Shown in pieces: positions 2,384 through 26,399 of a stretch of 64,000 nucleotides of DNA. A program made the translations under genes and the position numbers. Numbering within the stretch: the stretch's first letter is position 1; each line of letters begins with the position of its first letter. The stretch spans positions 14,527 to 78,526 of the forward strand of contig CAZHRW010000159.1 of assembly GCA_964535025.1 (NCBI GenBank), given 5' to 3'. This DNA comes from an uncultured Planctomycetales bacterium. Its GTDB lineage: Bacteria > Planctomycetota > Phycisphaerae > SM23-33 > FEN-1343. A model generated the notes under the pieces. It had not been told where the DNA came from. It did no database searches and worked only from the letters and a program-made list of their open reading frames with translations.

Positions 2384-2648
2384 CCGGTCGCGGCCGCCGG
2401 GCGAAGAGGGCATCGCCGGTGCTCGGGTCAATCCCGCCAAACGAGGGGGGCGAAGTGGGCGAAGTACTGGAGCCGGCCGACCTTTGGTGCGCGGCAGGTT
2501 GTCGCTTTTACCCGTTTCCTCCTTGACAGACGCCCGCGACACCGCATAATGAGTGAGCGTTCATTCACTTTTGGACGAGCCAAGCCGCGAACCGGTCGCT
2601 GACGGTCGGCGGCGGCTTTTCGAGGCGGCACCCGGTGGAGTGCGGGCC

Positions 2649-3245
2649 ATGGCCAGACCGGCGGTCAAGAAGGATCGAATGGAGAGGGCGGCGATCGAGT
2701 TGTTCGCCACCCAGGGACTGGCGCGGACGACGGTCCGCGACATCGCCGCGGCGGCCGGGGTCGGCGAGGGGGCCTTGTACCGCCACTGGACCGGCAAGAA
2801 CGAGATGGCCTGGGCGCTCTATCGGCGGGAGGTCCACGCCTTCGCCGACGCCCTGCGGCCGTACCTGGAAGCGGCCGATGGACCCCTGGCCGATCGCGTG
2901 GCGGCGGCCGTGGCGTTCATCTACGGGGCCTACGACGTCGACCCGACCCGCCTGGCGTTCATCCTGTTTACCCAGCACGGCTTCCCGGCCGAGCACGTCC
3001 TCGACGATGCGTTCAATCCGTTCACGCTGGTGCTGGCGTTCTGCCGGCGGGAGATCCGCAGCGGGACGATCCCGCCGGCCGACGGGGAGGTCCTCGCGTC
3101 GCTGGTGATGGGGTCGGTCGTCCAGCCGCTGATCATGCACCGCTACGGGCGCGTCACGCGGCCGCCGCGGGCGATCGCCGCCGACGTGGCGGCGAGCATC
3201 ACGGCGCTGCTGCTAGCCGCGGCGGCGGGGGAGGCGACGGCATGA
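2649..3245 (+). CDS. TetR/AcrR family transcriptional regulator
   Basis: MARPAVKKDRMERAAIELFATQGLARTTVRDIAAAAGVGEGALYRHW is a TetR HTH. Start is at the internal ATG of track ORF 2553..3245. Its stop overlaps the next gene's ATG (ATGA). Confidence 0.8.
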   Translation: MARPAVKKDRMERAAIELFATQGLARTTVRDIAAAAGVGEGALYRHWTGKNEMAWALYRREVHAFADALRPYLEAADGPLADRVAAAVAFIYGAYDVDPTRLAFILFTQHGFPAEHVLDDAFNPFTLVLAFCRREIRSGTIPPADGEVLASLVMGSVVQPLIMHRYGRVTRPPRAIAADVAASITALLLAAAAGEATA

Positions 3246-3964
3246 GCGGCGCGAACGAATCCCGGCCGGGGGCGGCGGGACGGCTGGCGTGGCCGGTGGT
3301 GGGGGTGTTGTGCCTGCTGCCGGCGATCCAGACGGCGGCGGCCGTGTGGCTGGAAATCTACCCGGCGGTGACCTATCCGCTCATGAAGGTCGTGATGATC
3401 ATTCTCCCCCTGGCCATCTGGCGCGGCCGGCGCCTGGCGGTGCGGGATGTGGCCGCACGGATCGGCCTGGCACGGCCGCGGCTGCTGAGGGGCGTGGGGA
3501 TCGGCCTGGCGATGGCCGCGATCATCGTCGGCGGCTACGTTCTGCTCCTGCGCGGCCGCGTCGACGGGGCGGGGATCGCCCGCAAGACCACGTCGCTGGG
3601 GTTGCGGGAGTATTATTGGGCGATGGCCGTGGTCATTTCGCTGGCGAACGCCGCCTTCGAGGAATATTACTGGCGGGGGTTCCTGCTGAGCGAACTGCGG
3701 CCGTGGACCGGGTGGTCGTGGCGGCTGACCGTCCTGGCCGGGGCGCTGTTCGGGGTGCATCACGTTTTCGCCCTCGCGCCGCTGCTGGCCTGGCCGCTGG
3801 CGGCCGGGTGCACGGCGATCACGATGGTCGCCGGGGGCGTCTGGGCGTGGATGCGGGTGCGGGGGTGGTCGCTGGTGGATTGCTACCTCAGCCACGTTCT
3901 GGCGGACCTGGCGATCATGGGCGTCGGGTGGGATCTTTTGCAGCAGGCGGCGAGGGCCGGATGA
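3242..3964 (+). CDS. CPBP family intramembrane glutamic endopeptidase (CAAX protease/Abi-like)
   Basis: Multi-TM protein with EEYYWRGFLLSE (EExxxR), FGVHHVFA (FxxxH) and a distal H motif. Translationally coupled on both sides (ATGA overlaps at 3242 and 3961). Confidence 0.75.
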   Translation: MSGANESRPGAAGRLAWPVVGVLCLLPAIQTAAAVWLEIYPAVTYPLMKVVMIILPLAIWRGRRLAVRDVAARIGLARPRLLRGVGIGLAMAAIIVGGYVLLLRGRVDGAGIARKTTSLGLREYYWAMAVVISLANAAFEEYYWRGFLLSELRPWTGWSWRLTVLAGALFGVHHVFALAPLLAWPLAAGCTAITMVAGGVWAWMRVRGWSLVDCYLSHVLADLAIMGVGWDLLQQAARAG

Positions 3965-5274
3965 AGTACGACCAGGACACGCTCAATCAGATTCGTCGCG
4001 GCCGCAGCCGGTTCATCGCCATGGTGGTGACGTACGGGCTGGGCACGTTCAACGACAGTTTCTTCCGCCAGTCGGCCATGCTGCTGGCGGTCGCCGAAGG
4101 TCACGAGGCCATGCAGGGGTGGATCATGAGCCTGTTCGCCCTGCCGTACCTGCTGTTCGCCTCGCTGACCGGCTGGCTGGCGGACCGATTCTCCAAGAAG
4201 CGCGTCGTGATCGCCGCCAAGGCCCTGGAAGTGGTGGCGATGGTTCTGGGGGCCGTCGGGATCATCACGCTGAACTGGTGGTTCGTCCTGGCGATGGTGT
4301 TCATCATGGCGACCCAGTCGTGCCTGTTCAGCCCGGCCTTGAACGGGTCGATTCCCGAGCTGTACCCGGATGTGTACGTGACGCGGGCGAACGGGACGCT
4401 CAAGCTGGTCGTCACGGCCATGATCCTCGCCGGCGGCGCCGTCGCGGGGGTGGCGATGGGCTTCGAGGGCACCGGCTGGGGCGGCGTGCCGACCGAGCGG
4501 ATCGGCGTGGCGGTGGGGGTGGTGGCGATCTCGTTGTGCGGGCTGGCGATGAGCTTCGGCGTCGTGCGCCGGCCCGCGGCCGACCCCGACGCGCCGATAC
4601 CGCGACGGGGACCTGTCAGTACGATCCGCGAATTGATCGCCATTCGCCGCGATGCGCTGCTGGCGAAGGTGATCGCCACGAACGCGTTCACCTGGTTCGC
4701 CGGATCGTTGCTGATCCAGTTCATCAACCTGATGGCACAGAATGAATTCGGCTGGCCCAAGCAGGTCGCGGGGTACCTGGTGGCCGCCGAGTTGATCGGC
4801 CTGGCGGTGGGGGGGCTGGTGGTCAGTCGTCTGGGGGGCGGGCCGCGGTGGTACCGCGCGTTGGGGCCGTCCATACTGGCCATGGGCGGGCTGCTGGTGG
4901 TCATGGAGATGCTGCCGATGCTCCCCGACGGCGGGAGCGTGCTGTGGTCGTGGATGCCGTCGGCGCGGCGGCTGGCCGCGTACGGGCTGCTCGGTGCGAT
5001 CGGCGTGCTGGGCGGATCGGTCGTCATCCCCTGCGAGGCGTTCGTGCAGCGGCGCCCGCCGGCGGGGCGCAAGGGGACGGTTCTCGCCTCGGCCGGCTTC
5101 GCGGTGTTCGCGGGGATCCTGGTCTCCGGCCCGCTGGCGAACGTCCTGGCCGCACCCGGTGCGGGCGGACGATCGCTGGTCGCGCCCACCCGCGCGATGG
5201 CGCTGCTGGGGGTGGCGGCCCTGGCCGCCGGGGCGTTTTTCCGCCGCGCGTACGCGAAGGAGACCGAGGCATGA
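3961..5274 (+). CDS. MFS transporter, lysophospholipid transporter LplT-like
   Basis: In-frame ATG at 3961 inside track ORF 3289..5274; the upstream part of that ORF overlaps the CPBP gene out of frame. 12-TM MFS topology. Gene order MFS followed by an Aas-like acyltransferase mirrors lplT-aas. Confidence 0.7.
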   Translation: MKYDQDTLNQIRRGRSRFIAMVVTYGLGTFNDSFFRQSAMLLAVAEGHEAMQGWIMSLFALPYLLFASLTGWLADRFSKKRVVIAAKALEVVAMVLGAVGIITLNWWFVLAMVFIMATQSCLFSPALNGSIPELYPDVYVTRANGTLKLVVTAMILAGGAVAGVAMGFEGTGWGGVPTERIGVAVGVVAISLCGLAMSFGVVRRPAADPDAPIPRRGPVSTIRELIAIRRDALLAKVIATNAFTWFAGSLLIQFINLMAQNEFGWPKQVAGYLVAAELIGLAVGGLVVSRLGGGPRWYRALGPSILAMGGLLVVMEMLPMLPDGGSVLWSWMPSARRLAAYGLLGAIGVLGGSVVIPCEAFVQRRPPAGRKGTVLASAGFAVFAGILVSGPLANVLAAPGAGGRSLVAPTRAMALLGVAALAAGAFFRRAYAKETEA

Positions 5275-7913
5275 ATCGGCTGCTCACCTGGCTGGTCAAG
5301 GCGGTGCTGTGGCTGCGGTACCGCGTTCGCATCACCGGCGTCGACGAGGTCGCCCGGCGGGGGCGGTCGGGGATCCTCTTCCTGCCCAATCACCCGGCCC
5401 TGATCGACCCGATCATCCTGACGTCGCACCTGTACGGCCCGTTCGCCGTCCGCGCCCTGGCCGACCGGGGGCAGATCGACCGGTTTTTCATCCGGTGGCT
5501 GGCCCGACGGATCGGCGTGCTGCCGATCGAGGACGTCGCCACCGCCGGGCCCGACGCCGCCGACGCCGTCCGCCAGGCCGTCGACAAGGTGGTCGCGGGA
5601 CTGCGAGACGGCGACAATTTCATCCTCTACCCGGCCGGGCGGGCCTATCAGGGGTACCTCGAGGACCTCGGCGGAACCAGCGCCGTCGAGATGATCCTCC
5701 GCAAGTTGCCCGACGTCCGCGTCGTGCTCGTCCGCACCCGGGGCCTGTGGGGCAGCGCGTTCAGCCGCGCCTCCGGCACGGAGCCCGACGTCGCGACAAT
5801 CCTGCGCCGCGGTGTCGGCCGGCTGCTGCTTAACGGCATCGTCCTCGGCCCGCGCCGCCACGTGGAGATCACACTCGACGAGCCCGACGACCTGCCCCGC
5901 GGCGGCGATCGCCGGACCCTCAACCGCTACCTGGAAACGTTCTACAACGTCGGCGCCGAGCACAACACGTACGTCCCGTATACCTGGTGGGAGCGCGGCG
6001 GCGTGCGGACCGAGCCCGAACCCCGGCCGCCCGGCGTCCACGGCGACCTCGAGCGGGTCGGCGACGCCACCCGACGGCAGGTCGCCGACTACCTCCGCAC
6101 GCTCACCGGCCGCGACGAGCCGCTGTCGGACGACCTGCGGTTGGCGCACGACCTGGGGATGGACTCGCTGGCCCGCGCCGACCTGGTGATGTGGCTGGGG
6201 CGCGAGTTCGGCTACCCGCCGGGGGACGTCGACTCGCTGCGGACTGTGGGGGACGTGATGCTCGCGGCCGGCGGGCAGGCGCGGGGGGCGGTGGCCAGGC
6301 CGCTCAAGGCGGTGCCGGACCGGTGGTTTAACGACGGCGCCGAGCCGCGGCTGCTCGATGGGGTCGAAACCATGACCATCTGCGAGGCCTTCCTCGCCCA
6401 GGCCCGCCGCCGGCCGTCCGCCGTCGTCCTGGCCGACCAGACCAGTGGGGCGAAGACCTATCGCGATCTGGTGATGGGCATCCTGGCGCTCAGGCCCGCC
6501 ATCGAGGCGATCGACGGGACGCACGTGGCGATCATGCTGCCGGCCTCCGTCGCCGCCAACGTGGTCTACCTGGCGACGCTGTTCGCCGGCAAGACGCCCG
6601 TGATGGTCAACTGGACGACCGGGCGCAGGAACATCCTGCACGGCCTGGACGCCCTGGACGTTTCGGCGGTGCTGACGGCTCGGGAACTGGTCCACCGCTT
6701 AGGCGGCCAGGGCGTCGATCTCGGCGGCGCGGCCGAGCGGTTCGTCTACCTGGAGGACCTGCGGGCGTCGCTGACGACGAAGGCCAAGCTCGCCGCGTGG
6801 ATCGCCGCCCGCCTCGGCCTGCATCGCCTCGGCGCCGTCAGGCCGCCGGAGACCGCCGTGATCCTCTTCACCAGCGGGTCGGAGAACGTCCCCAAGATCG
6901 TCCCGCTGACCCACCGCAACATGCTGACCAACCTCGCCGACGCCTGGACCCGCTTCGCCCTCGGACCGACCGACAGCCTGCTGGGCATCCCCCCGCCGTT
7001 CCACTCGTTCGGATTAACGGCGACCATGCTCCTGTCGACCTGCACGGGACTGCGGGCGGCGTTTCATCCCAACCCGACCGAAGGGGCGGCGGTGGCCCGG
7101 TTGATCGACGCGTATGCCTGTTCGATCCTCGTGACCACGCCGACGTTCCTCAACGGGATGGTCCGCATGGCCGACGCCGACCAGTTGCTTTCGCTGCGGC
7201 TGGTCGTCTCGGGTGCCGAGGCCTGTCCGCCGCGGGTCTATGAGGCGATGGCCCGCCGGTGTCCGCAGGCGGTCGTGCTGGAAGGGTACGGCGTGACGGA
7301 GTGCTCGCCGATCATCTCGGTCAATCCCGAAGCCGATCCGCGGCCGGGGTCGATCGGCCCGGTCCTGCCGTCGATCGAGTACGCCATCACCGATCCCGAC
7401 ACGTTCGAGCGGGTCGAGGTCGGCCGGCGGGGCATGCTCCTGGTGCGGGGGCCCAGCGTGTTCGGAGGGTACCTCCAGCACGACGGGCCGTCGCCCTTTG
7501 TCGAGGCCGAGGGGCACACGTGGTATCGCACGGGCGACCTGGTCCGCGCCGATGAGGACGGCTGGCTGACGTTTGCCGGGCGGCTCAAGCGGTTCGCCAA
7601 GATCGGCGGGGAGATGATCTCCCTGCCGGCCATCGAGGCGGTGCTCACCGAGCGGTTCATTCGCGACGACGACGAGGGGCCCATCCTCGCCGTCGTCGCC
7701 GTGACGGCCGACGAGCGGCCGGAACTGGTGCTGGTGGCCGTGCGGGAGATCGATCGCGACGCCGCCAACGCCGCGATCCGCGAGGCGGGGCTGTCGGCCC
7801 TGCACAATATCCGGCGGGTCGAGCTGCTCGATGAGCTGCCCCTGCTGGGCACGGGCAAGACGGACTACCGGGCGCTCCAACGGCGACTCGCCGGCGAACA
7901 GAAGGACGCGTGA
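5271..7913 (+). CDS. three-domain Aas-like enzyme: PlsC-type lysophospholipid acyltransferase, then embedded acyl-carrier (phosphopantetheine-attachment) domain, then acyl-AMP ligase / acyl-ACP synthetase
   Basis: Start MNRLLTWLVKAV at 5271 (ATGA overlap with the MFS stop). NHPALIDPI = LPLAT HX4D motif. DLGMDSLARADLV = PP-binding DSL site. ILFTSGSENVPKIV, YGVTECSP and WYRTGDLV are AMP-binding motifs. Confidence 0.8.
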   Translation: MNRLLTWLVKAVLWLRYRVRITGVDEVARRGRSGILFLPNHPALIDPIILTSHLYGPFAVRALADRGQIDRFFIRWLARRIGVLPIEDVATAGPDAADAVRQAVDKVVAGLRDGDNFILYPAGRAYQGYLEDLGGTSAVEMILRKLPDVRVVLVRTRGLWGSAFSRASGTEPDVATILRRGVGRLLLNGIVLGPRRHVEITLDEPDDLPRGGDRRTLNRYLETFYNVGAEHNTYVPYTWWERGGVRTEPEPRPPGVHGDLERVGDATRRQVADYLRTLTGRDEPLSDDLRLAHDLGMDSLARADLVMWLGREFGYPPGDVDSLRTVGDVMLAAGGQARGAVARPLKAVPDRWFNDGAEPRLLDGVETMTICEAFLAQARRRPSAVVLADQTSGAKTYRDLVMGILALRPAIEAIDGTHVAIMLPASVAANVVYLATLFAGKTPVMVNWTTGRRNILHGLDALDVSAVLTARELVHRLGGQGVDLGGAAERFVYLEDLRASLTTKAKLAAWIAARLGLHRLGAVRPPETAVILFTSGSENVPKIVPLTHRNMLTNLADAWTRFALGPTDSLLGIPPPFHSFGLTATMLLSTCTGLRAAFHPNPTEGAAVARLIDAYACSILVTTPTFLNGMVRMADADQLLSLRLVVSGAEACPPRVYEAMARRCPQAVVLEGYGVTECSPIISVNPEADPRPGSIGPVLPSIEYAITDPDTFERVEVGRRGMLLVRGPSVFGGYLQHDGPSPFVEAEGHTWYRTGDLVRADEDGWLTFAGRLKRFAKIGGEMISLPAIEAVLTERFIRDDDEGPILAVVAVTADERPELVLVAVREIDRDAANAAIREAGLSALHNIRRVELLDELPLLGTGKTDYRALQRRLAGEQKDA

Positions 7914-8890
7914 GCATGCGAGAGGTGCTGATGCTGGGGATGCTGACCGGGATGACGCTGGCCGGCGGGTGCGGGGGCGTGCGGGACTTCTACGCCCGCA
8001 GCCTGGTCGTGCACACGCGCCTGCCGGGCCGCCTCCAATTGGCGCTGCAGCCGCCGGACGCGGTGCTGCTGCGTCGGGGGCGGATCGACCAGGCCCGCCG
8101 GATCGCCACGAGCGACGGGGTGTGCATCGACCTGTGGGTGATCAATGCCCGACCGGCGGCGGGGGACCGCCCGCGGGGCACGGTGGTGGCACTGCACGGG
8201 TTGGCGATGTCGCGGGTGGAGATGCTGGCCACCGCCCAACGCCTGGCCGATCGGGGCTTCGACGTCGTTCTACCCGACCACCGCGCGCACGGCCGCTCGA
8301 CGGGGCGGTACACGACCTTCGGGGCCAAGGAGGCCCGCGACGTCCGGGAGGTCCTCGACGTACTCCGGGCCGAGGGGGCCGTGGCGTTGCCCACCTATGC
8401 GGTGGGCGTGTCCATGGGCGGCGCGACGGCCGTGCTGTACGCCGCCGACGATCCCGACTGCCGGGGCGTCGTCGCCCTGGCCCCGCCGGCCGACACCCGC
8501 GCGATCCTCCGACGGCTGCTGGTCGTCTACGCCCCGTGGATGGTGGGTCGCCGGGCCGACGCCGTCGTCGATCGCGCCGGGGCGCTGGCCGATTTCGACG
8601 TCGACGCCACCAGCGCCGCCGACGCCGCTCGACGCCTGACGTGCCCGCTCCTGGTCGTGCACGGCACGTTCGACGCCATCGTGCCGACCTGGCACGGCCG
8701 CCGGGTCTACGCCGCGACCGCCGGGCCGAAACGCCTTGAATGCATCCGGGGCCTCGGTCACGCCCTCATCATGACCGGCCGTGCCGACTGGATCGCCGAC
8801 CAGGTCGACGCCATGGCCGCCGGCCGCTTCGTCGCCAAAGGCACCTGGGCGAGCGATAGGGAGACGCGAGATGAAAAAGTTAGCGGATGA
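7910..8890 (+). CDS. alpha/beta hydrolase (lipoprotein signal, lysophospholipase/esterase-like)
   Basis: LTGMTLAGGCGG lipobox; GVSMGGATA = GxSxG nucleophile elbow. GTGA/ATG start is coupled to the Aas-like stop. Confidence 0.7.
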   Translation: MSMREVLMLGMLTGMTLAGGCGGVRDFYARSLVVHTRLPGRLQLALQPPDAVLLRRGRIDQARRIATSDGVCIDLWVINARPAAGDRPRGTVVALHGLAMSRVEMLATAQRLADRGFDVVLPDHRAHGRSTGRYTTFGAKEARDVREVLDVLRAEGAVALPTYAVGVSMGGATAVLYAADDPDCRGVVALAPPADTRAILRRLLVVYAPWMVGRRADAVVDRAGALADFDVDATSAADAARRLTCPLLVVHGTFDAIVPTWHGRRVYAATAGPKRLECIRGLGHALIMTGRADWIADQVDAMAAGRFVAKGTWASDRETRDEKVSG

Positions 8891-9779
8891 TGCCCTCGAC
8901 GAGTCCCATTCCGCCGCGCCGTCCGTCAGCAAGCCAAAGAAGCCGCTGTGGCGGCGGCTGGTCGTGAGCGTCCTGCGCATCGTCATCGCGGCCTACGTCG
9001 GCCTGGCGCTGGTGCTGACGTCGTGTCAGTCGCGGATTGTCTATCAACCGTCGGAGACCATGGACGCGACGCCCGATGAGGCGGCGATGGAGTACGAAGA
9101 CGTCCGCTTCACCGCCGACGACGGGGTTCGCCTCCACGCGTGGTATATCCCGGCTGAGGGGGCCCGAGGCACGGTACTGGTCTGTCACGGCAATGCCGGC
9201 AATATCTCCGGCCGCCTGGCGACCGCGGCGCTGTTCCAGCGGCTGGGGCTGTCGGTGCTGCTGTTCGACTACCGTGGCTACGGGCTCAGCGAGGGCAAGC
9301 CGAGCGAGGAGGGCACTTACCTCGACGCGGCCGCCGCGTGGCGGTACCTTACCGAGGAGCGGGGGATCGACCCGGCCGGGATCGTGGTCTTCGGCCGTTC
9401 GCTGGGCTCGGCGATCGCGACCCGCCAGGCGGCCGCGGCGCCGCCGGCGGCGCTGATCGTCGAGTCGGCGTTCACCTCGGTCCCGGACGTCGCCAGGCAT
9501 TATTACCGCTTCCTGCCGGTCGGGTGGCTGTGCCGGTTCGACTACGCGACGGAAGCGACCATCGGCCGGGTGCGCTGCCCGGTCCTGGTCATCCACAGCC
9601 GCGACGACGAGATCATCCCCTTCGCCATGGGGCGGCGGGTGTTCGAGGCCGCGGGCGAGCCCAAACGCTTCCTGGCCATCGGCGGCGGACACAACGACGG
9701 CTTCCTCGTCAGCCAGGGCGATTATCTGCGCGAGATCGATTCGGTGCTCGACGAGGTCCTCGGCAAGGACGGGACCTGA
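8871..9779 (+). CDS. alpha/beta hydrolase with N-terminal membrane anchor
   Basis: Start MKKLADD at 8871, preceded by GGAGACG. TM segment LVVSVLRIVIAAYVGLALVL. CHGNAGN and GRSLGSAIA (GxSxG) motifs. Confidence 0.7.
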   Translation: MKKLADDALDESHSAAPSVSKPKKPLWRRLVVSVLRIVIAAYVGLALVLTSCQSRIVYQPSETMDATPDEAAMEYEDVRFTADDGVRLHAWYIPAEGARGTVLVCHGNAGNISGRLATAALFQRLGLSVLLFDYRGYGLSEGKPSEEGTYLDAAAAWRYLTEERGIDPAGIVVFGRSLGSAIATRQAAAAPPAALIVESAFTSVPDVARHYYRFLPVGWLCRFDYATEATIGRVRCPVLVIHSRDDEIIPFAMGRRVFEAAGEPKRFLAIGGGHNDGFLVSQGDYLREIDSVLDEVLGKDGT

Positions 9780-9911: not shown

Positions 9912-12900
9912 ATGGAACGTTCGGCAACTCAGCCCCACGGTGGGCATCTCGGCGGTTGTCCGCTTCCCGGTTTCGAGACCCTCGAGCCGCGATTGATGCT
10001 GGCCGGCGACGTGGTGATCTCGGAGTTCATGGCCATCAACGATGGGACGCTGGCCGACGTGGACGGGGATTACAGCGACTGGATCGAACTGCACAACCGC
10101 GGCGACGACGCCGTCGACCTCGACGGGTGGTTTCTCACCGACGATCCGGCCGACCTGACCAAGTGGCGGATCCCCGCGATCACGCTGGCCGCCGGGGAGA
10201 TCGAGGTGATCTTCGCCTCCGACAAGGATCGCGACGACCCGGACGGTGAACTGCACACGGGCTTCAAGCTCAGCGGTTCGGGCGAGTACCTGGCGCTGGT
10301 GATGCCCGACGGGACCTCCATCGCCCACGCCTACGCGCCGACGGTCCAGTACGCCGACGTCTCCTACGGGCTCGACCTGGACGGCAACCCCGCCTACTTC
10401 GACCCGGCCACGCCCGGGGTGCCCAACGCCGGGGACGTGGAACTGCTGCCGGACGTCGAGTTCTCCGTCCAGCACGGCGTCTTCGACGCGCCGTTCACAC
10501 TGACGCTGAGCAGTTCGGTCCAGGATGCGACCATTTACTACACGCTGGACGGCACGGATCCCTACGGGGCGATCGACGCCGTCGAATACACCGGCCCGAT
10601 CGTCATCGACGCGACCACCGTCGTGCGGGCCTATGCCGAGACCTGGGACGCCGAATCCGCGGTGACCACGCAGACCTACATCTCCCTCGCATCGGTCCTG
10701 ACCCAGGGCGACGACCAGACCGCCATCGGCTTCCCCGACATCTGGCACGCCGGGGCCGGCGGCAGCGGCATCTACGACAGCGAATACCGCGACGCCGATT
10801 ACGAGATGGACCCGGACATCATCAACGACCCGGTCTGGGGGCCGCTGCTGACCGAGGCGCTCACCCAGATTCCGTCCATGGCGCTGACGCTGGACCCGTA
10901 CGACTTGTGGGACCCGGAAGACGGCATCTACCCCAACTCGATCCAGCGCGCCAGCCGCGACGACAAGTGGGAAAAGCCCTCGTCGCTGGAGTTGTTTTAC
11001 CCCGACGGCAGCACCGAGGAAGGCTTCACCGTCAACGCCGGCGCCCGCATGTTCGGCGAACTGGCCCGATGGGCCGCGGTCAACGACAAGCAGAGCTTCC
11101 GGATGGTGTTCCAGGGCGAGTACGGCCCGACGAAGCTGGTGACCGACTTCTTCGGCGACTCCGACGTCGACGAGTACGACACCATCGTCATGCGGGCCCA
11201 CTGGGGCAAGTCCTGGCTGCTGGACGAGGCCCTCGGCGACCGGCTGGGGGTTTCCTGGCTGAATTCCGATCCGTCGTCGGCCCAGTACCTCCGCGACCTC
11301 TACGCCCTGACCACCTTCGCCGATACCGGCAACCTCAGCTCCGACGGGCGCATGGTCCACCTGTACCTCAATGGCCTGTACTGGGGCCTTTACGAGGTCA
11401 TCGAACGGCCGGACAACTCCTTCAACGCCGAGCACCGTGGCGGGGACAAGGACGACTACAGCGTCATGAAGGGCGCCGCCGGCACATTCGCCTACCGCGG
11501 CGAGAACACGTATAACATTGGTGTGCACATGCCCTACTACATGTCCAACGGCCGCCTCCAGGACGGTAGCCGCGACATGTGGGACTGGCTCTTCCATACG
11601 TATTTCGATGCCCACGAGGACGGCATCAACATGCTCGAGCGGGACAATGTCACCCCGGTCCGCGGCACGATTAGTGATGAGGAACTGGCCGAGATCGCCC
11701 AATACGTCGACCTCGACAACCTCATCGACTACATGATCACGCTGTGGACGCTCAACCGCGGGGACTTCCCCGGCAAGAACTGGTACGCCGCCTGGGAAGG
11801 CGGCGCCGCCGACACGCCGCCCGACAAGCCGATCCAGTTCTACGTGTGGGACTCCGAAGCGTCCCTGGCCGGTACGGAGATCACGCATTGGACTCCGCCG
11901 GCCGAGCGATGGAACAGCCCCAGCAAGGGTAATGACACCGGCCCGGTCCGCATGTACTGGCGGCTGATCACCAACCAGGGCTTCCGCATCCGCTGGATGG
12001 AACGGGCCCGGGATCTGCTGGGCGACGGCGGGCCCCTCTCGGATGAGGCCTCCATGCAGCGCTACGCGGAGATGGCCTCGCAGATCGACATGGCCGTCAT
12101 CGCCGAATCCGCCCGCTGGGGCGACTCGGCGACGCTGCACATCAACGACCCGATGACCAAGGACGACTGGCAGGCCGAGTACGACCGCCTCATGGCCGAG
12201 TGGTTCCCCGGCCGCGCCGAGATGGTCCTGGCCGAGATGGGGGCGGCGGGGCTGGACGATGCGCCGACGGCGCCCGAGATCGACGTCCCCGGTGGTCTGG
12301 TTCAGCCCGGCACAATGGTGATGCTGAGCACGGTCGGCGACGGCGAGGTATGGTACACGCTCGACGGCACCGACCCCATGGACGGCGTCGGGATGCCGAT
12401 GCCGATGAGCGACCCGCGGCTGCAATGGGCCTTCAACGATACCGGAACCGATCTGGGCACCGCCTGGCGGGAAATCGACTACGACGATTCGACCTGGGGT
12501 ACGGGCACCGGCCGTCTCGGCTATGGCACCGGCGACGAGGATACCGCCATCGGCTTCGGCGACGATTCGCTCGACAAGCACATCACCACCTACTTCCGTG
12601 CCAACATCATCCTGGACGAAGTGCCGGACGATACGGTGACGCTCTACGTCCGCCGCGACGACGGCGTGGCGATCTACGTCAACGGCCATCGCATCGCCGA
12701 GCCGCACGACAATCTGCCCGCCGGCGAGATCACCTACGACACGCTGGCCAGCTCGTCGGTGGCCTTCGGGGCCGAAAACCAGTGGCACACATACGAAGTG
12801 GACCCGTCGCTGTTCGTCGAGGACCACAACGTGATCGCCGCGGAGGTCCACAAGTACAGCCCGCGCGGCTGGGACCTGACCTTCGAGATGACCACCGACC

Positions 12901-14918
12901 TGCCGTTGCAGAGCATCTCGGCCGTCCCCGTCGAACTGTTTACCGACACCCACCTGGTCGTCCGCACGATGCGCGACGGCAAGTGGAGCTACAAAACCGA
13001 GGCCGTCTACATCGTCGACGAGGCCCCGCCCCTGGCGATCACGGAGGTCAACTACAACCCGGCGGCCGCGATGGCGGCCGAATACCAGGCGGGCGCGACG
13101 GACGCCCAGGACTTCGAGTTCATCGAGGTCCACAACCCCACCGGCAATCCGATCCGCCAGATCGGCGCGACCCTGAGCGAGGGCATCACCGCGACGCTGC
13201 CATTGTTCGAACTCGAACCCGGCGAGTACGGCGTATTCGTCCGCGACCGCGAGGCCTTCCAATTGCGGTACGGCACCGACGTGAAGATCCTCGGCGAGTA
13301 CACTCGCCACCTGGGCAACGGGGGCGACCGGATCGTGCTGACCAGCTCCAACGGGGCGGTCCTGGCCGACTTCACCTATGACGACGCCGCCAACTGGCCC
13401 GGCCGCGCCGACGGCCGCGGCGCCACGCTGGAGGTCATCGACACCCAGGGCGACTACAACAGCGACGACACCTGGCGCTCGTCGACCGAGTATCTCGGCA
13501 CCCCCGGCGCCGCCGGGATCGGGCCCGTCGACTCGGTGATCATCAACGAAGTGGTCACCAATCCCGACGGCGGCTCCGACGCGATTGAACTGCACAACCC
13601 CACCGGCGAGGCGATCGACATCGGCGGCTGGTACCTCAGCGACACCGCCGACGAGTACACCCGCTACCGCATCGGCGACGATACGGTCATCCCGGCCGGC
13701 GGATACCTGGTCTTGACGGACGCCGAGCTGGGATTCGGCCTCAGCCGCTTCGGCGAGGACGTCTGGCTCATGGCCGCCGACGGCGACGGGGCCCTGACCC
13801 GGTTCGTCGACCACGTCGAATTCGGCGCGGCCCTGGAGGGGATGCCCTTCGGACGCTATCGGGGCCAGGACGCCGACGGCGATTTCACCGCCCTGGCGAG
13901 CATTACACTCGGCGGGCCCAACGCCGGGCCGTTCCCCAGCGACGTGATCCTCAGCGAAGTCCACTACCATCCCGGCGACCTGGCCGGATCGACTGAGGCC
14001 GACCTGGAGTTCCTCGAGCTGTACAACCGCAGCGATCACCCCGTCCCGCTCGACTGGTACGACGCCAACGGCAACGGCGTCCGCGACGCCGGCGAGCAGG
14101 GCGCCTGGCGGCTGGCCGGCGCCGTCGAGTTCGCCTTCCCGGCCGGCACGACGATCGACCCCGGCGGCACGCTGGTCGTTGTGGGCGCCGCGTCGGTCGA
14201 GGCGTTCCGGACGGCCTACGGGATCGATGAGAGCGTAGCCGTTTTGGGCGCCTGGGACGGCCGGCTGGCCAACGGCCGCGAGCGGATCGACCTGTGCCTG
14301 CCGGCGCCTCTGCGCACCGGGGACACCGAGACGGCCTACGTCGTGGCCGACTGGGTCGACTACAAGGACCACCTGCCCTGGCCCGTCTCGGCTGACGGCG
14401 CCGGCGATTCACTCCACCGCATGCGCGCCTGGGCGTACGGCAACGACGTCACGAACTGGTTCGCCGCCGAGCCCAACCCCGGGCAGGCGGCCCTGACGCC
14501 GGAGGCCCTGGAAGGCGATCTGAACCACGACCTCCAGGTCGACGGCGTCGACATCGGCCTGATCAACCGGGCTGTCCGCGAGGGGGCGACCGATCTGCGG
14601 TTCGACCTGGACGGCGACGGGGACGTCGACGGCGCCGACGTGGACTACCTGCTCCAGGGGATCCTCGGCACGCACGCCGGGGACTTCAACCTCGATGGGT
14701 ACGTCGACCTCGACGACTTCGACGCGCTCAAGACCGGCTTCGGCAAGCCCGCCGGCTGGTCCGGCGGCGACGCCAACGGCGACGGGAGGGTCGACCTGGA
14801 GGACTTCGCCATCCTCAAGAAAAACTACGGCGCCCAGCCGGTCCAGCAGGCCGATCCGGACAACCTGCTGGCGCCCCTGGACGTCCTGGCCGAAGTCGCC
14901 GCCGGCCCCCTTGGGTAG
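9912..14918 (+). CDS. giant secreted CotH kinase-like protein with four lamin-tail domains (LTD) and C-terminal dockerin repeats
   Basis: 1668 aa. LTD signatures VVISEFMAINDG...DWIELHN, ITEVNYNP...FIEVHNPTGNPI, VIINEVVTNPDG...IELHNPTGEAI, VILSEVHYHP...LELYNRSDHPV. CotH core MVHLYLNGLYWGLYEVIERPDNSF. C-terminal DLDGDGDVDGADVDYLL, GDFNLDGYVDLDDFDALK and GDANGDGRVDLEDFAILK dockerin repeats. N-terminal motif ETLEPRLMLAGD. Confidence 0.75.
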   Translation: MERSATQPHGGHLGGCPLPGFETLEPRLMLAGDVVISEFMAINDGTLADVDGDYSDWIELHNRGDDAVDLDGWFLTDDPADLTKWRIPAITLAAGEIEVIFASDKDRDDPDGELHTGFKLSGSGEYLALVMPDGTSIAHAYAPTVQYADVSYGLDLDGNPAYFDPATPGVPNAGDVELLPDVEFSVQHGVFDAPFTLTLSSSVQDATIYYTLDGTDPYGAIDAVEYTGPIVIDATTVVRAYAETWDAESAVTTQTYISLASVLTQGDDQTAIGFPDIWHAGAGGSGIYDSEYRDADYEMDPDIINDPVWGPLLTEALTQIPSMALTLDPYDLWDPEDGIYPNSIQRASRDDKWEKPSSLELFYPDGSTEEGFTVNAGARMFGELARWAAVNDKQSFRMVFQGEYGPTKLVTDFFGDSDVDEYDTIVMRAHWGKSWLLDEALGDRLGVSWLNSDPSSAQYLRDLYALTTFADTGNLSSDGRMVHLYLNGLYWGLYEVIERPDNSFNAEHRGGDKDDYSVMKGAAGTFAYRGENTYNIGVHMPYYMSNGRLQDGSRDMWDWLFHTYFDAHEDGINMLERDNVTPVRGTISDEELAEIAQYVDLDNLIDYMITLWTLNRGDFPGKNWYAAWEGGAADTPPDKPIQFYVWDSEASLAGTEITHWTPPAERWNSPSKGNDTGPVRMYWRLITNQGFRIRWMERARDLLGDGGPLSDEASMQRYAEMASQIDMAVIAESARWGDSATLHINDPMTKDDWQAEYDRLMAEWFPGRAEMVLAEMGAAGLDDAPTAPEIDVPGGLVQPGTMVMLSTVGDGEVWYTLDGTDPMDGVGMPMPMSDPRLQWAFNDTGTDLGTAWREIDYDDSTWGTGTGRLGYGTGDEDTAIGFGDDSLDKHITTYFRANIILDEVPDDTVTLYVRRDDGVAIYVNGHRIAEPHDNLPAGEITYDTLASSSVAFGAENQWHTYEVDPSLFVEDHNVIAAEVHKYSPRGWDLTFEMTTDLPLQSISAVPVELFTDTHLVVRTMRDGKWSYKTEAVYIVDEAPPLAITEVNYNPAAAMAAEYQAGATDAQDFEFIEVHNPTGNPIRQIGATLSEGITATLPLFELEPGEYGVFVRDREAFQLRYGTDVKILGEYTRHLGNGGDRIVLTSSNGAVLADFTYDDAANWPGRADGRGATLEVIDTQGDYNSDDTWRSSTEYLGTPGAAGIGPVDSVIINEVVTNPDGGSDAIELHNPTGEAIDIGGWYLSDTADEYTRYRIGDDTVIPAGGYLVLTDAELGFGLSRFGEDVWLMAADGDGALTRFVDHVEFGAALEGMPFGRYRGQDADGDFTALASITLGGPNAGPFPSDVILSEVHYHPGDLAGSTEADLEFLELYNRSDHPVPLDWYDANGNGVRDAGEQGAWRLAGAVEFAFPAGTTIDPGGTLVVVGAASVEAFRTAYGIDESVAVLGAWDGRLANGRERIDLCLPAPLRTGDTETAYVVADWVDYKDHLPWPVSADGAGDSLHRMRAWAYGNDVTNWFAAEPNPGQAALTPEALEGDLNHDLQVDGVDIGLINRAVREGATDLRFDLDGDGDVDGADVDYLLQGILGTHAGDFNLDGYVDLDDFDALKTGFGKPAGWSGGDANGDGRVDLEDFAILKKNYGAQPVQQADPDNLLAPLDVLAEVAAGPLG

Positions 14919-21707: not shown

Positions 21708-22104
21708 CGCGGCCCTCGCGGCGAAGGCCCATGGCGAGAGCCGCCTGTGGCCGCCGCGGCCGCATGGCAAGTCTCGTCAGGGGTCTTTGCATGCGCCAAA
21801 GACTCAGAGGCCCTCTACGATAGCGTCGCCGCCGGCGCTTGTCAATCCGGGCTCCGGGCAGGTTACCGCGGGGCCGCTGATGGAGTGGGCGAAGGAGATG
21901 CCGTCTTTTCGGGGGGGGTGCCGCGGGTGGGGTAAGGAATGACAAGGGGTTACAATTTCGGAGTTGCAATACCGAGATAGCTTGGGTGGGCGGAGGAATT
22001 GGTGGGCGCGCCGCCACATCGGGGTGGGGCGGCCCTATGATTGGGGTGGAAGCCGTCCGCTACTCCCCCCGCACCGGCGGGCCGGGCTGAGAGGAGTGAC
22101 CAGC

Positions 22105-23961
22105 ATGAATGACACCGCCGGTCTGCGGAAGGGACTGGGGCTCGTTCACGTGTTCGCCATCGCCTCCGGGGCGATGATCAGTTCCGGTCTGTTCATCCTG
22201 CCGGGCATGGCTCACGCCCAGGCCGGGCCGGGCGTGGTGTGGTCGTACCTGATGGCCGGCATCCTCGCGACGGCCGGCGCGCTGAGCATCGCCGAGCTGT
22301 CGACCGCCATGCCCAAGGCCGGCGGCGATTACTTCTTCATCACCCGCGGCTTCGGCCCCGGCGTCGGGACGGTCGCCGGGCTGCTGAGCTGGTTTTCCCT
22401 GTCGCTGAAGAGCGCCTTCGCCATCGTCGGCATGGCCGCGTTCGCCACGTTGATCGTACGGCTTCACGGCGTCGCGGCCGGCGGGCTGCTGGTGGTGCTG
22501 TTCGTGGGGCTCAACCTCCTCGGCGTCCGCGAAGCCGCCCGCGCCCAGGTCGCCATTGTCGCGGTCATGTTCGCGCTGCTGGCGATGTACCTGGTCGTCG
22601 GCTTCCCGCGAATCCGCGTCGAGCTGCTGATCCCCTTCGCCCCGCACGGCATGGCGGCGATCTTCGCGACGACCGGGTTCGTCTTCGTCTCCTACGGCGG
22701 GCTGCTCAACGTCGCCAGCGTCGCCGAGGAGGGCCAACGTCCCGGTCGCACCATCCCGATGGGACTGCTGTTGTCGTTGATCACCGTGACGATCCTCTAC
22801 ACGCTCGTCGTCGCCGTTACCAGCGGCGTGGTCGAAGACGCGGCGCTCGACAGCTCGCAGACGCCGATCTCCGACGGCGGGCGGGTCATCCTCGGCCAGG
22901 TCGGCTTCGTCGCCATGAGCCTCGGGGCGATCCTCGCGTTCGTCTCGACCGCCAACGCCGGGATCATGTCGGCGTCGCGCTACCTGCTGGCCCTCAGCCG
23001 CGACCGCCTCCTGCCCGAGCCCCTCGCCAGGGTCAACCGTCGCTTCCGGACGCCCCACGTGGCGATCGGCGTCACCGGCGTGGTGATCTTCCTGAGCCTG
23101 CTGCTGGCCCTCGAGGTCCTCGTCGAGGCCGCCTCGACCGTGCTGATCCTGGCCAACATCCTCTCGTGCCTGTCGGTGATCGTCCTGCGAGAGAGCGGCG
23201 TGCAGAACTACCGGCCGTCCTTCAGGACCCCGCTGTACCCGTGGGTGCCGCTGGGGGGCATTCTCGGCCTGGGCTTCGTCCTGTTCTCGATGGGGGCCGC
23301 GGCGTACGGCATCAGCGCGGGGCTGATCCTGGTGGGCTTCGCGATCTACTGGTTTTACGGCCGCAAGCGGGTCTCGCAGGAGTCGGCCCTGCTGCACCTG
23401 ATCGAGCGGCTGACCGCCCGCGAGCTGGTCACCGGCACGCTGGAGAGCGAACTGAAGGAGATCGTCCACGAGCGTGACCAGATCGCCCTCGATCGCTTCG
23501 ACCGGCTCGTCGAAGACGCCCCCGTCCTCGATGTCGGCGAGCCCATGACCGCCGAGGCGTTCTTTCAGGCCGCCGCCGCCGAGTTGGCGCCACGCGTGGC
23601 CATGGACGCCGGCGCCCTGGCCGCGATGCTCCGCCGGCGGGAGGCCGAGGGCTCCACGATGCTCAGCCCGTCGATGGCGATCCCGCACGTGGTGGTCCCC
23701 GGCGAGCACCAGTTCGGCCTGCTGCTGGCGCGGGCCCGCGAGGGCGTCCGGTTCGCCGACGGCCAGCCGGGCGCCGAGGCGATCTTCGTCCTCGCCGGCA
23801 CCGCCGACGAACGCAACTTCCACCTCCGCGCCCTGGCCGCCATCGCCCAGACCGTCCAGGAGAAGGACTTCCACCGCCGCTGGATGGCCGCCACCGGCGC
23901 CCAGGGCCTCCGCGACGTCATACTCCTGTCCGAACGCGGCCGACAGGAAGGAGCGGACTGA
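22105..23961 (+). CDS. APC-family amino acid permease fused to a C-terminal PTS EIIA type-2 (EIIA-Ntr-like) domain
   Basis: Start MNDTAGLRKGLG preceded by GAGGAG. 12-TM APC core. C-terminal domain has SMAIPHVVVPG with the conserved His, followed by IFVLAGTADERNFHLRALAAIA. Confidence 0.72.
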   Translation: MNDTAGLRKGLGLVHVFAIASGAMISSGLFILPGMAHAQAGPGVVWSYLMAGILATAGALSIAELSTAMPKAGGDYFFITRGFGPGVGTVAGLLSWFSLSLKSAFAIVGMAAFATLIVRLHGVAAGGLLVVLFVGLNLLGVREAARAQVAIVAVMFALLAMYLVVGFPRIRVELLIPFAPHGMAAIFATTGFVFVSYGGLLNVASVAEEGQRPGRTIPMGLLLSLITVTILYTLVVAVTSGVVEDAALDSSQTPISDGGRVILGQVGFVAMSLGAILAFVSTANAGIMSASRYLLALSRDRLLPEPLARVNRRFRTPHVAIGVTGVVIFLSLLLALEVLVEAASTVLILANILSCLSVIVLRESGVQNYRPSFRTPLYPWVPLGGILGLGFVLFSMGAAAYGISAGLILVGFAIYWFYGRKRVSQESALLHLIERLTARELVTGTLESELKEIVHERDQIALDRFDRLVEDAPVLDVGEPMTAEAFFQAAAAELAPRVAMDAGALAAMLRRREAEGSTMLSPSMAIPHVVVPGEHQFGLLLARAREGVRFADGQPGAEAIFVLAGTADERNFHLRALAAIAQTVQEKDFHRRWMAATGAQGLRDVILLSERGRQEGAD

Positions 23962-24148
23962 CACGCAATCCTTGCGTGAGCGCCGTTGACGAATACGTGA
24001 AAACCCGCGACACGGAACACCAGTGATTCGTTCCGTCACGTCACCCGTCATGCCATGGATCGGCGGATTTTTCCCCTCTTCTTTCCCCTTGACCCCGGGC
24101 GCCAACTGTGATATGAACGCCGCCTCATTCAACGAGCGAATATTCATA

Positions 24149-24853
24149 ATGCCGAATAAGCACTCAACGAGAGACGCCGGCCGCAAGCTTGCCCGCAAGG
24201 AGCGGGAGCGCCGGCGGCATCGCCGCGAGATCCTCGACGCCGCCGAGGCGGTGTTCGTTCGCAAGGGCTATGCGGCGGCGACGGTCGACGAGATCGCCCA
24301 GGAGGCCGAGTTCGCCGTCGGCACGCTGTATAACTTCTTCCAGGGCAAGGACGACCTGTATGCCCACGTCATGCGGAAGATCGTCGAGGACTTCATGGAG
24401 GCCTTCGAGACGCAGGTGTTGAGCCTGGACGATCCGATCGAGGCGATCACCGCGCTGATCGAGCTGCGATTGACGCATTTCGACGAGCATTGGGCCTTCT
24501 TCCGCGTGTTCCTGGAAACCTCCCCGGTCGGCCTGATCGACACGGCGCGGGTGCTGCCGGCGACAATCGTCGAGCAGCGCGACCGGTACCTCCGGGCGGT
24601 CAGCCGCCTGTTCGAAGACGGCGTGGCCCGCGGCGCCTTCGACGAGATCGATCCGCTGTACCTGACGCTGTGCCTGGAGGGGATGATCAACGCCTTCTTC
24701 TCGTACTGGTTCCGCCACAAGCCCACCGAGCCGCTGGCCGTGCGGGTAGAGAAGATGACCGCCGCCTTCCTCGGACGGGGGAAGATCCGCCCGGCGGACC
24801 ACCCGCCCGCGGCCGGCAGCCTCAACCGCAAGCGTCAAGGCAATAAGGAGTAA
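24149..24853 (+). CDS. TetR/AcrR family regulator of the efflux operon
   Basis: ILDAAEAVFVRKGYAAATVDEIAQEAEFAVGTLYNFF is a TetR HTH; start MPNKHST. Confidence 0.8.
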   Translation: MPNKHSTRDAGRKLARKERERRRHRREILDAAEAVFVRKGYAAATVDEIAQEAEFAVGTLYNFFQGKDDLYAHVMRKIVEDFMEAFETQVLSLDDPIEAITALIELRLTHFDEHWAFFRVFLETSPVGLIDTARVLPATIVEQRDRYLRAVSRLFEDGVARGAFDEIDPLYLTLCLEGMINAFFSYWFRHKPTEPLAVRVEKMTAAFLGRGKIRPADHPPAAGSLNRKRQGNKE

Positions 24854-24860
24854 CCTCGCC

Positions 24861-26399
24861 ATGGGCAACGATGGTCCCGCGCTTGTGAACATCCCCCCGA
24901 CGGCCCCGCGACGGTGGCTGGGACCGGCCCTGCTCGCGGTCGCCCTGGCGGCCGGCGGCTGCATAAGCGGAGCCGCCGGTCCCGAGCAGGTCTACAACGA
25001 CCGCGTCGCGGTCTACGAGCGCTGGCAGCGCGGCCGTGAGGCCGACGCCGAGACCCTGCCGGTCCTGTCGGGGCGGCTGAGCCTCGCCGACGCCGTCAAG
25101 GTCGCCCTGGCCTACAACAAGTCCCTCCTGGCCGTCCTCCAGGACAAGCGGATCGCCCGCGGCCGCGTGGTTGCCTCCTACGCCGAGGCGCTGCCGACCG
25201 TGACAGCCCAGGCGAGCTACACGCGGCTGGACGAGGTGACGAGCTTCAACGCCGGCGGGCAGTGGATCTCGACGGGCGAGTTGGACAACTACGCGGTCGA
25301 CCTGAGCGTCCGCCAGCCTGTCTACCGCGGCGGGGCGATCCGCTCGGCGATCCGCGGCGCGGAACTGTTCGCCCATCTGACCGACGAGACGGTCCGCGCC
25401 GGCGTCCAGGCCGTGGTCTACGACGTCGCGGCCACGTACTACGCGACGCTGCTGGCGCGGCAGCTCTACGAGGTCAACCGCCAGGCGGTCGTTTCCGCCG
25501 AGGCGCACCTGGCCGACGTGCGGACAAAAGCCGAGCAGGGCGTCGCGTCGCGGTTCGACGTGCTTCGCGCCCAGGTGGATGTCTCGAACTTCCAGGCCGA
25601 GATGATCCGCCAGCAGAACCGGCTGAACCTCGCCCGTACCCGGCTGCTCAAGACGATGGGCGCCTCGCAGGATACGCAGGTCGTCCTCAGCGACGAGTTG
25701 ACCTACCATCCGATCGAGCCGTCGGAGGCCGAGGCGGTCCGGCTGGCGTATCTCCGCCGGCCGGACCTCTACCGGGCCGAGCTGGCCGTCCGCCTGCAAA
25801 GCGAGGCCGTCCGGATCGCCCGCAGCGCCTATTGGCCGAGGATCGACGCACTGTTTACCCAAGGCTGGGCCCGACCCGACCCCCACACGTCCACCGACGA
25901 CTGGGGCGACCGGTGGACGGCGGGCGTGCAGGCGGAGATCCCGATCTTCGACGGGCTGCGGCGCGAGGGCCGCCTGATCGAGGAGAAGGCGGCGCTGGCG
26001 CGCCGGCGGATCGAGCGCGACGACGCGACCGACCAGGCCCTGCTGGAGATCCGCCAGGCTCTGCTGAGCGTGGAGGACGCCGAGCAATTCGTCGCCAGCC
26101 AGCGGCTGAACCTCGAGCGGGCCCACGAGGGGCTGCGGCTGGCGGAGGTCGGCTACCGGGAGGGCGTCAACACGGAGGTGGAAGTGGTCGACGCCCGCGC
26201 CGCCCTGACGCGGGCGCGGGGCTTGTATTACCAGGCGGTCCATGATCACGCGCTGGCCCGGCTGGCCCTGCAGCGGGCGACGGGCGGCCTGGCGCCGCCG
26301 CCGGGCGAGACCGCCGTCGAAGCCGTGCCGGCGCTGAGACCGCCGCACGAAGAGGCGCTCGAGCCGACCTCGGCGCCGGCGGGAGCAAACAACGAATGA
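24861..26399 (+). CDS. outer membrane efflux protein (TolC/OprM family, lipoprotein)
   Basis: Lipobox LAAGGC. Two OEP repeats with coiled-coil/beta-barrel pattern. Confidence 0.8.
   Translation: MGNDGPALVNIPPTAPRRWLGPALLAVALAAGGCISGAAGPEQVYNDRVAVYERWQRGREADAETLPVLSGRLSLADAVKVALAYNKSLLAVLQDKRIARGRVVASYAEALPTVTAQASYTRLDEVTSFNAGGQWISTGELDNYAVDLSVRQPVYRGGAIRSAIRGAELFAHLTDETVRAGVQAVVYDVAATYYATLLARQLYEVNRQAVVSAEAHLADVRTKAEQGVASRFDVLRAQVDVSNFQAEMIRQQNRLNLARTRLLKTMGASQDTQVVLSDELTYHPIEPSEAEAVRLAYLRRPDLYRAELAVRLQSEAVRIARSAYWPRIDALFTQGWARPDPHTSTDDWGDRWTAGVQAEIPIFDGLRREGRLIEEKAALARRRIERDDATDQALLEIRQALLSVEDAEQFVASQRLNLERAHEGLRLAEVGYREGVNTEVEVVDARAALTRARGLYYQAVHDHALARLALQRATGGLAPPPGETAVEAVPALRPPHEEALEPTSAPAGANNE

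Follow-up and report, generated by a model that had tools for sequence, protein, structure and literature searches.

The Aas/LplT pair is the standard lysophospholipid repair system of bacteria. In Escherichia coli, Aas consists of a transferase domain (residues 1–203) and a synthetase domain (residues 204–719), and uses free holo-acyl carrier protein (holo-ACP) to make the acyl-ACP that then serves as acyl donor (PMC11416262). Carriers that are physically joined to fatty-acid-activating ligases are known from other pathways. In FAAL-ACP (fatty acyl-AMP ligase–ACP) didomain loaders, e.g., HapA and NocH, the ligase is covalently joined to its cognate carrier (PMC11837247), while ElbD, encoded in the elb operon of Myxococcus and involved in ether-lipid synthesis, combines a FAR-like N-terminal domain with ACS, ACP, and AGPAT-like domains on one chain (PMC9131029). 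Here, we analyze a gene for an 880-residue protein in which an ACP domain lies between a PlsC-type acyltransferase and an Aas-type ligase. The gene is located on a stretch of 64,000 nucleotides (hereafter "the window") from an uncultured Planctomycetales bacterium (assembly GCA_964535025.1, contig CAZHRW010000159.1, positions 14,527 to 78,526), and we consider it probable that it encodes an Aas-type lysophospholipid re-acylation enzyme which has acquired an AcpP-like carrier and operates through a tethered acyl-ACP intermediate.

A carrier domain inserted between the two halves of an Aas-type enzyme

An initial annotation, made from the sequence alone, had proposed an acyltransferase–ACP–ligase tri-domain protein at 5271–7913 (all coordinates follow the window numbering, and residues are numbered along the 880-residue protein). 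These coordinates are exact: a single frame of 880 codons starts with the ATG at 5271, with an AAGGAG 8 nt 5' of it, and ends with a stop codon whose last base is 7913. Pfam identifies all three domains in the full protein, in the order acyltransferase (PF01553, residues 19–125, 24.1 bits for a cut-off of 23), PP-binding (phosphopantetheine-binding, PF00550, residues 270–328, 26 bits, E = 1.1e-5, cut-off 20.8), and AMP-binding (PF00501, residues 376–735, 211.7 bits, cut-off 29.9). The motifs quoted in the initial annotation can all be read in the translation, i.e., NHPALID (residues 40–46), the DSL serine context within LAHDLGMDSLARADLVMWLG (residues 291–310, encoded by nt 6141–6200, including Ser299), TSGSENVPK (residues 534–542), and YRTGD (residues 752–756). 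An AlphaFold2 (AF2) model of the full protein reached a mean predicted local distance difference test score (pLDDT) of 86.2 and a predicted template modelling score of 0.79. The closest relatives, at 77–85% identity, are proteins from metagenome-assembled genomes (MAGs) of Planctomycetota, and the G+C content is ~69% across the whole window. The gene and its parts are as follows, with the supporting evidence in brackets:

5271..7913, + strand: tri-domain enzyme gene, 880 residues (open reading frame and translation, Pfam, AF2 model)
5271..6023, + strand: PlsC-type acyltransferase domain, residues 1–251 (PF01553, conserved residues, NCBIfam matches, ends of stand-alone homologues)
6057..6275, + strand: acyl carrier (PP-binding) domain, residues ~263–335 (PF00550, AcpP-type profile matches, domain-only AF2 model, Foldseek)
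6165..6167, + strand: codon of Ser299, predicted 4'-phosphopantetheine attachment site in GMDSL (translation, conservation, models)
6375..7910, + strand: adenylate-forming ligase domain of the Aas-S type, residues 369–880 (PF00501, E. coli Aas alignment, NCBIfam, Foldseek)

That E. coli Aas is a two-domain enzyme relying on free ACP, the premise from which the initial annotation started, is borne out by the literature (PMC11416262), and the 880-residue protein departs from this architecture through the PP-binding domain between its catalytic domains. The first ~110 residues can be aligned to the E. coli transferase (31% identity over 112 residues) and the ligase aligns with E. coli Aas residues 205–718 with few gaps (BLASTP, 32% identity over 525 residues, E = 3e-71), while no match to E. 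coli Aas was found for residues ~125–368. The ~160 extra residues relative to E. coli Aas are the inserted carrier domain and its linkers. The suggestion that the linkers of other Aas proteins might hide a cryptic ACP did not stand up for E. coli Aas: a Pfam scan of this protein returned Acyltransferase and AMP-binding alone, without any PP-binding match even at E ≤ 1, and since its transferase ends at ~203 and its ligase starts at 204 there is also no space for one, so that this candidate was rejected. Likewise, LplT-Aas fusions of the PRK08633 type have no room for an ACP: in this model, the end of the acyltransferase match (~564) is separated from the start of the ligase match (~615) by ~50 positions, compared to ~200 residues here.

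The middle region is an AcpP-like carrier

To describe the carrier across the family, we used an alignment of 120 close homologues (53–100% identity) and a distant set of 150 cluster representatives (31–54% identity). A scan for the PP-binding domain that the initial annotation had placed in this region detects PF00550 above the cut-off not only in the full protein but also in the excised domain (30.5 bits, E = 4.4e-7), and in 30/30 excised middle regions of homologues. The serine, likewise expected to be conserved among orthologues, is strongly retained: Asp298–Ser299 is unchanged in 120/120 close homologues, Leu300 nearly so, and helix II and the approach to it follow the strongly conserved pattern LxxDLGxDSLxxxxLxxWL. 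An ACP domain was found in 121 of the 150 distant representatives, Ser is kept in 119 of 122 ACP-domain matches among them, and the helix II recognition region (LxxDLGxDSL...W/L) persists down to ~31% identity. When a profile of the carrier region was compared to the PDB, ACPs of type II fatty acid synthase (FAS) and mitochondria were matched ahead of the carriers of nonribosomal peptide synthetases (NRPS) and polyketide synthases (PKS), with E = 1.2e-9 for Aquifex ACP and ~9e-7 for E. coli AcpP.

The predicted structure is consistent with these matches. A Foldseek search of the PDB with the full-length model returned ANL ligases alone, including adenylation–carrier complexes, and left the other two domains unmatched; because this search said nothing on these domains, we modelled the ACP region by itself. 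The resulting model (pLDDT 88.5) has ACPs for 50/50 best PDB matches, nearly all of the type II FAS or mitochondrial type, with probabilities of 0.99–1.00 and target-normalised TM-scores mostly between 0.65 and 0.8, and the better matches superpose with a root-mean-square deviation of ~1.5–2.5 Å over ~70 residues. The AF2 helices of the domain span residues 265–279, 299–313, and 326–333, and helix II begins at Ser299 in the full-length and the domain-only model alike. The domain core is acidic (isoelectric point ~4.3 vs 4.05 for AcpP), and it is flanked by linkers of ~11 (residues 252–262) and ~33 residues (residues 336–368) with pLDDT values of 67–76. Taken together, these results identify the middle region as a genuine AcpP-like carrier domain whose attachment serine is under purifying selection, and Ser299 is predicted from its sequence context to be 4'-phosphopantetheinylated.

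Both catalytic domains retain their characteristic residues

Judging from conserved residues, both catalytic domains look active. The acyltransferase begins with a hydrophobic helix (residues 2–14), followed by the HX4D block (NHPALID) and a YPAGR block at residues 120–124, in which H41, P42, and G123 are invariant and D46 is D in 108/120 and E in 12/120 homologues. This domain is divergent from the textbook PlsC; when isolated, however, its NCBIfam matches were limited to Aas-type models, namely PRK08633 (62 bits) and PRK08043. In the ligase, TSGSE..PK, EGYGVTEC, YRTGD, GRLKRF, and the lysine of the C-terminal GxGKxD (GTGKTD in the 880-residue protein) are all invariant, and the best NCBIfam models are PRK08633, PRK06814, and PRK06334.

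The acyltransferase also occurs by itself. Stand-alone proteins of ~256 residues with 50–56% identity to this domain are encoded in deltaproteobacterial and Thermodesulfobacteriota MAGs (L015, 5983–6753; L016; L017; L019; L021; here and below, L and P codes denote related loci and cluster representatives, respectively), and no ACP, ligase, or MFS (major facilitator superfamily) gene was found within 6 kb of them. These proteins end exactly where the linker begins in the 880-residue protein, which places the domain boundary at ~residue 251. For proteins from different phyla, this level of identity to the domain is unusually high, which could point to horizontal transfer.

The enzyme gene is coupled to an LplT-like transporter gene

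Upstream and downstream of the enzyme gene, we identified the following genes:

2553..3245, + strand: TetR-family regulator, head of the gene string (TetR_N)
3242..3964, + strand: Rce1-like/CPBP intramembrane protease, 240 residues (PF02517)
3961..5274, + strand: LplT-like MFS transporter, 437 residues (MFS_1, NCBIfam)
7910..8890, + strand: alpha/beta hydrolase 1, Hydrolase_4/lysophospholipase-like (Pfam, NCBIfam, junction sequence)
8781..9779, + strand: alpha/beta hydrolase 2, exact start uncertain (Pfam)

From the TetR gene to hydrolase 1, each neighbouring pair overlaps by 4 nt, stop to start. The ATG of the enzyme gene lies in an ATGA shared with the stop of the MFS gene, and with ATGA overlaps at both of its ends, the MFS gene is translationally coupled to the enzyme gene. 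The transporter matches the N-terminal part of PRK08633 best, with 162.9 bits, and the LplT model PRK11195 weakly, with 59 bits (cut-off 297). The MFS protein, the acyltransferase, and the ligase each have the same LplT-Aas fusion model, PRK08633, as their best NCBIfam match.

This linkage recurs in most relatives. An MFS gene is located directly 5' of the enzyme gene in 6/6 relatives on long contigs, overlapping it by 4 nt in five cases and abutting it in one, and the same arrangement was observed in L002, L003, L004, L011, and L020. In-frame fusions of the two genes, which yield MFS–acyltransferase–ACP–ligase proteins of ~1300 residues, account for 23 of the 121 representatives with an ACP and for at least 9 of the 120 closest homologues (domain order verified with Pfam on P0015 and P0119). 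In L020, from a Brocadiaceae MAG, such a fusion (4771–8638) is split by a frameshift into two overlapping frames, 4771–6867 and 6704–8638; the locus is either misassembled or a pseudogene.

Other neighbours recur less often. A TetR gene is found upstream of the MFS–enzyme pair in L002, L003, and L027 as well. The Rce1-like gene has a 76%-identical copy at the equivalent place in L002 (4023–4736), and in L025 an Rce1-like gene (5041–5742) lies directly 5' of the MFS gene. The protease gene is probably part of the operon, and may recur as a third member alongside the MFS–enzyme pair. Hydrolase 1 starts with a GTG that overlaps the enzyme stop codon, and the two hydrolases could possibly supply free fatty acid or lysolipid. 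We considered these hydrolases as conserved partners of the enzyme and rejected this idea, since neither had a tblastn match in 20 related loci; they look instead like a local addition.

A widespread family in the PVC group

To estimate the extent of the family, residues 1–348 were used as a query against representatives of 50%-identity clusters, which retrieved 312 representatives at E ≤ 1e-30 and 1086 at E ≤ 1e-3. Named Planctomycetota sources include Phycisphaerae, Sedimentisphaerales, Tepidisphaerales, and Brocadiia, a protein from one Lentisphaeria MAG is tri-domain by Pfam, and a few of the MAGs are labelled Deltaproteobacteria or Pseudomonadota. Overall, the family is widespread and abundant in the Planctomycetes–Verrucomicrobia–Chlamydiae (PVC) group, mainly in Planctomycetota and Lentisphaeria. 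Database names for its members ("AMP-binding protein", "hypothetical protein", or "long-chain-fatty-acid--[ACP] ligase") do not recognise the carrier, and for hundreds of proteins of the PVC group, present annotation overlooks their function.

Partial architectures were also observed. Nineteen representatives, including P0122, P0136, P0141, and P0145, stop just past the ACP domain (acyltransferase–ACP, ~340–400 residues), and several others (P0240, P0243, P0252, P0254) consist of an MFS–acyltransferase without the ACP and ligase. Both forms may have arisen by truncation at contig ends or represent real split versions of the system.

Full-text searches of the literature did not turn up any account of an Aas with an ACP. 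Such an enzyme is mentioned neither in a 2024 mechanistic paper on LplT-Aas (PMC11416262) nor in a 2026 survey of lysophospholipid acyltransferases, and the published descriptions that we found present Aas as a two-domain, soluble-ACP-dependent enzyme. An Aas-type enzyme with an in-cis carrier is apparently an undescribed variant, and the carrier-containing family departs from the described architecture.

A proposed tethered acyl-ACP relay and its alternatives

In the catalytic cycle that we infer, a phosphopantetheinyl transferase would turn Ser299 into the holo form, and the C-terminal ligase, given its homology to Aas-S, would adenylate a free fatty acid and attach it as a thioester to the pantetheine arm on the built-in ACP. 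The carrier, held on its two flexible linkers, could then swing to the N-terminal acyltransferase, which would pass the acyl group to a lysophospholipid. The co-transcribed LplT-like MFS protein, based on homology and conserved gene linkage, may flip the lysophospholipid to the cytoplasmic leaflet. A lysophospholipid is the likely acceptor by analogy, considering both the homology of the enzyme and its conserved LplT-like neighbour. As the chemistry of E. coli Aas itself runs via acyl-ACP, a tethered ACP is compatible with known chemistry. In older biochemical work, E. coli Aas was described as a tight binder of ACP, from which a covalent fusion would follow naturally. Sequence, structure prediction, and comparative genomics thus support the interpretation given in the initial annotation. 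That annotation had further described the protein as self-sufficient, which is correct for the carrier alone: the enzyme would still depend on ATP, on a free fatty acid, and on a phosphopantetheinyl transferase.

Several observations weigh against a straightforward assignment to Aas. The full protein scores 283.9 bits on the equivalog model PRK08043 and 454.2 bits on PRK08633, well short of the respective cut-offs of 886 and 1221, and in the latter case the ligase part alone aligns well. The PF01553 score barely clears its cut-off (24.1 vs 23 bits), and a profile search with the acyltransferase domain found no significant sequence relative in the PDB, GPAT1 being retrieved at E = 0.5. With an acyltransferase that is divergent and without a significant PDB sequence relative, the acceptor may differ from that of E. 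coli Aas. Finally, no adjacent MFS gene was detected in L005, L008, L010, L012, L014, and L018, for which the upstream flank is present.

In one alternative, the same relay from ligase to in-cis ACP to acyltransferase serves an acceptor other than membrane lysophospholipid. This acceptor might be glycerol-3-phosphate or lysophosphatidic acid, acylated with scavenged fatty acids, or a lineage-specific Planctomycetota lipid, with the MFS protein importing a different substrate. The divergence of the acyltransferase (PF01553 at 24 bits vs 87 bits for E. coli Aas, and an alignment limited to 112 residues), the modest LplT score of the transporter, and the stand-alone acyltransferases lacking a nearby MFS or ligase gene would all be consistent with such a role, for which ElbD provides a precedent by combining ligase, ACP, and acyltransferase in special lipid synthesis (PMC9131029). 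We nevertheless regard a different acceptor as unlikely: the acyltransferase domain in isolation matches no NCBIfam models other than those of the Aas type, transporter, acyltransferase, and ligase share one best family (the LplT-Aas fusion), Pfam identifies no reductase, NAD-binding, or other lipid-tailoring domain in the 880-residue protein, and the recurring genes among the neighbours examined are the MFS gene and, less often, the TetR and Rce1-like genes, with no lipid-tailoring enzyme.

Two other alternatives concern the carrier itself. The ACP-like domain could have a structural role, as a spacer or as a docking module that perhaps contacts the transporter or the membrane, in an enzyme that still uses free acyl-ACP and holo-ACP as E. 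coli Aas does. In favour of this role, the Pfam score of the domain is modest (26 bits), Ser is missing from P0134 and P0174 among the 122 distant ACP-domain matches, and homologous acyltransferases work on their own, presumably using a free donor. However, the invariant Asp-Ser, the conservation of the helix II recognition region across distant relatives, and the AcpP-like fold and acidic character make a mere spacer quite improbable, as does the location of the domain, which sits precisely between the domain that makes the donor and the one that uses it and is joined to both by flexible linkers. Alternatively, the protein could be a fatty-acid loader that feeds a separate PKS, NRPS, or other secondary-metabolite enzyme, similar to the fused FAAL-ACP proteins that are well known in natural-product pathways (PMC11837247), and adenylation–carrier complexes are indeed among the Foldseek matches of the ligase. 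However, the ACP precedes the ligase in our protein and a PlsC-type acyltransferase is fused to it, the ligase is nearest to Aas-type models, and the carrier is nearest to primary-metabolism AcpP rather than to peptidyl or PKS carriers. No PKS, NRPS, or lipid-tailoring genes were found near the enzyme gene in the window or in six related loci, and with no PKS or NRPS genes in any neighbourhood examined, we rejected this highly improbable candidate.

Returning to the tethered lysophospholipid re-acylation enzyme, we also propose, tentatively, that the relay is closed, so that scavenged or recycled fatty acids, once activated, would return directly to membrane phospholipid while bypassing the free acyl-ACP pool of fatty-acid synthesis, and the ~1300-residue versions would represent a complete single-polypeptide flippase–acyltransferase–carrier–ligase repair machine. 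The carrier-containing family, which is large and conserved, can be taken as genetic evidence for channelling of the acyl-ACP intermediate inside the enzyme, and is a clean example of a carrier captured in primary lipid metabolism. If the closed relay is true, the family would also be a natural "Rosetta-stone" proof that this intermediate never has to leave Aas, and the enzyme would be the first in primary phospholipid homeostasis to contain a carrier. One prediction is that recycled fatty acids are held apart from the FAS II pool in bacteria with a carrier-containing Aas. For engineering, the enzyme may also offer a compact ACP-independent module (880 residues, or ~1300 residues with the transporter) for the incorporation of fatty acids into phospholipids.

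Other genes in the window

Beyond the enzyme locus, the gene at 9912–14918 (+ strand) encodes a 1668-residue protein with a CotH kinase domain, four lamin-tail domains, Fn3-associated and CHB_HEX_C domains, and a dockerin at its C-terminus. The homologous locus L028 encodes a protein of similar domain content on the corresponding side, and L022 an LTD protein. The gene at 21943–23961 (+ strand) encodes an amino-acid permease with a C-terminal PTS EIIA-2 domain, an uncommon transporter–regulator fusion. At 23990–30699 (+ strand), a TetR gene precedes genes for an OEP outer-membrane factor, an HlyD-type adaptor, and an AcrB-type RND pump, which is an ordinary tripartite efflux operon.

Comparison with known systems

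The closest described system is E. coli Aas, with which the 880-residue enzyme shares an N-terminal PlsC-type acyltransferase with an HX4D motif, a C-terminal Aas-S ligase, and an adjacent and overlapping LplT-like MFS gene. The two differ in that E. coli Aas comprises 719 residues without a carrier, whereas the enzyme here includes an ACP and its linkers, and in gene order, since aas is upstream of lplT in E. coli and the MFS gene is upstream here. The LplT-Aas fusions (PRK08633 and PRK06814, ~1140 residues) provide the best NCBIfam match for the MFS, acyltransferase, and ligase parts; unlike the system described here, with its separate MFS gene and its ACP, they include the MFS in the chain and have no carrier. 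MFS-fused, ACP-containing relatives are longer, at ~1300 vs ~1140 residues. As for the carrier, it resembles type II FAS AcpP in its best profile and structure matches, in the DSL at the start of helix II, and in being acidic. AcpP is, however, a free protein of ~78 residues with 20 acidic and 5 basic residues, while the carrier here is embedded in a much larger enzyme and is less acidic (13 vs 8).

Outside of the Aas lineage, ElbD resembles our enzyme in that one polypeptide carries an ACP together with a ligase that activates fatty acids and an AGPAT/PlsC-like acyltransferase (PMC9131029). Because ElbD already fuses a ligase, a carrier, and a lipid acyltransferase, the architecture reported here is a moderate rather than a fundamental surprise. 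The present enzyme is distinguished from ElbD by the absence of a reductase, the order acyltransferase–ACP–ligase, its Aas-type lineage, and its MFS partner. FAAL-ACP didomains differ in both arrangement and destination: in these proteins the ligase precedes the ACP and feeds PKS/NRPS lines, whereas here the ACP comes first, after a lipid acyltransferase.

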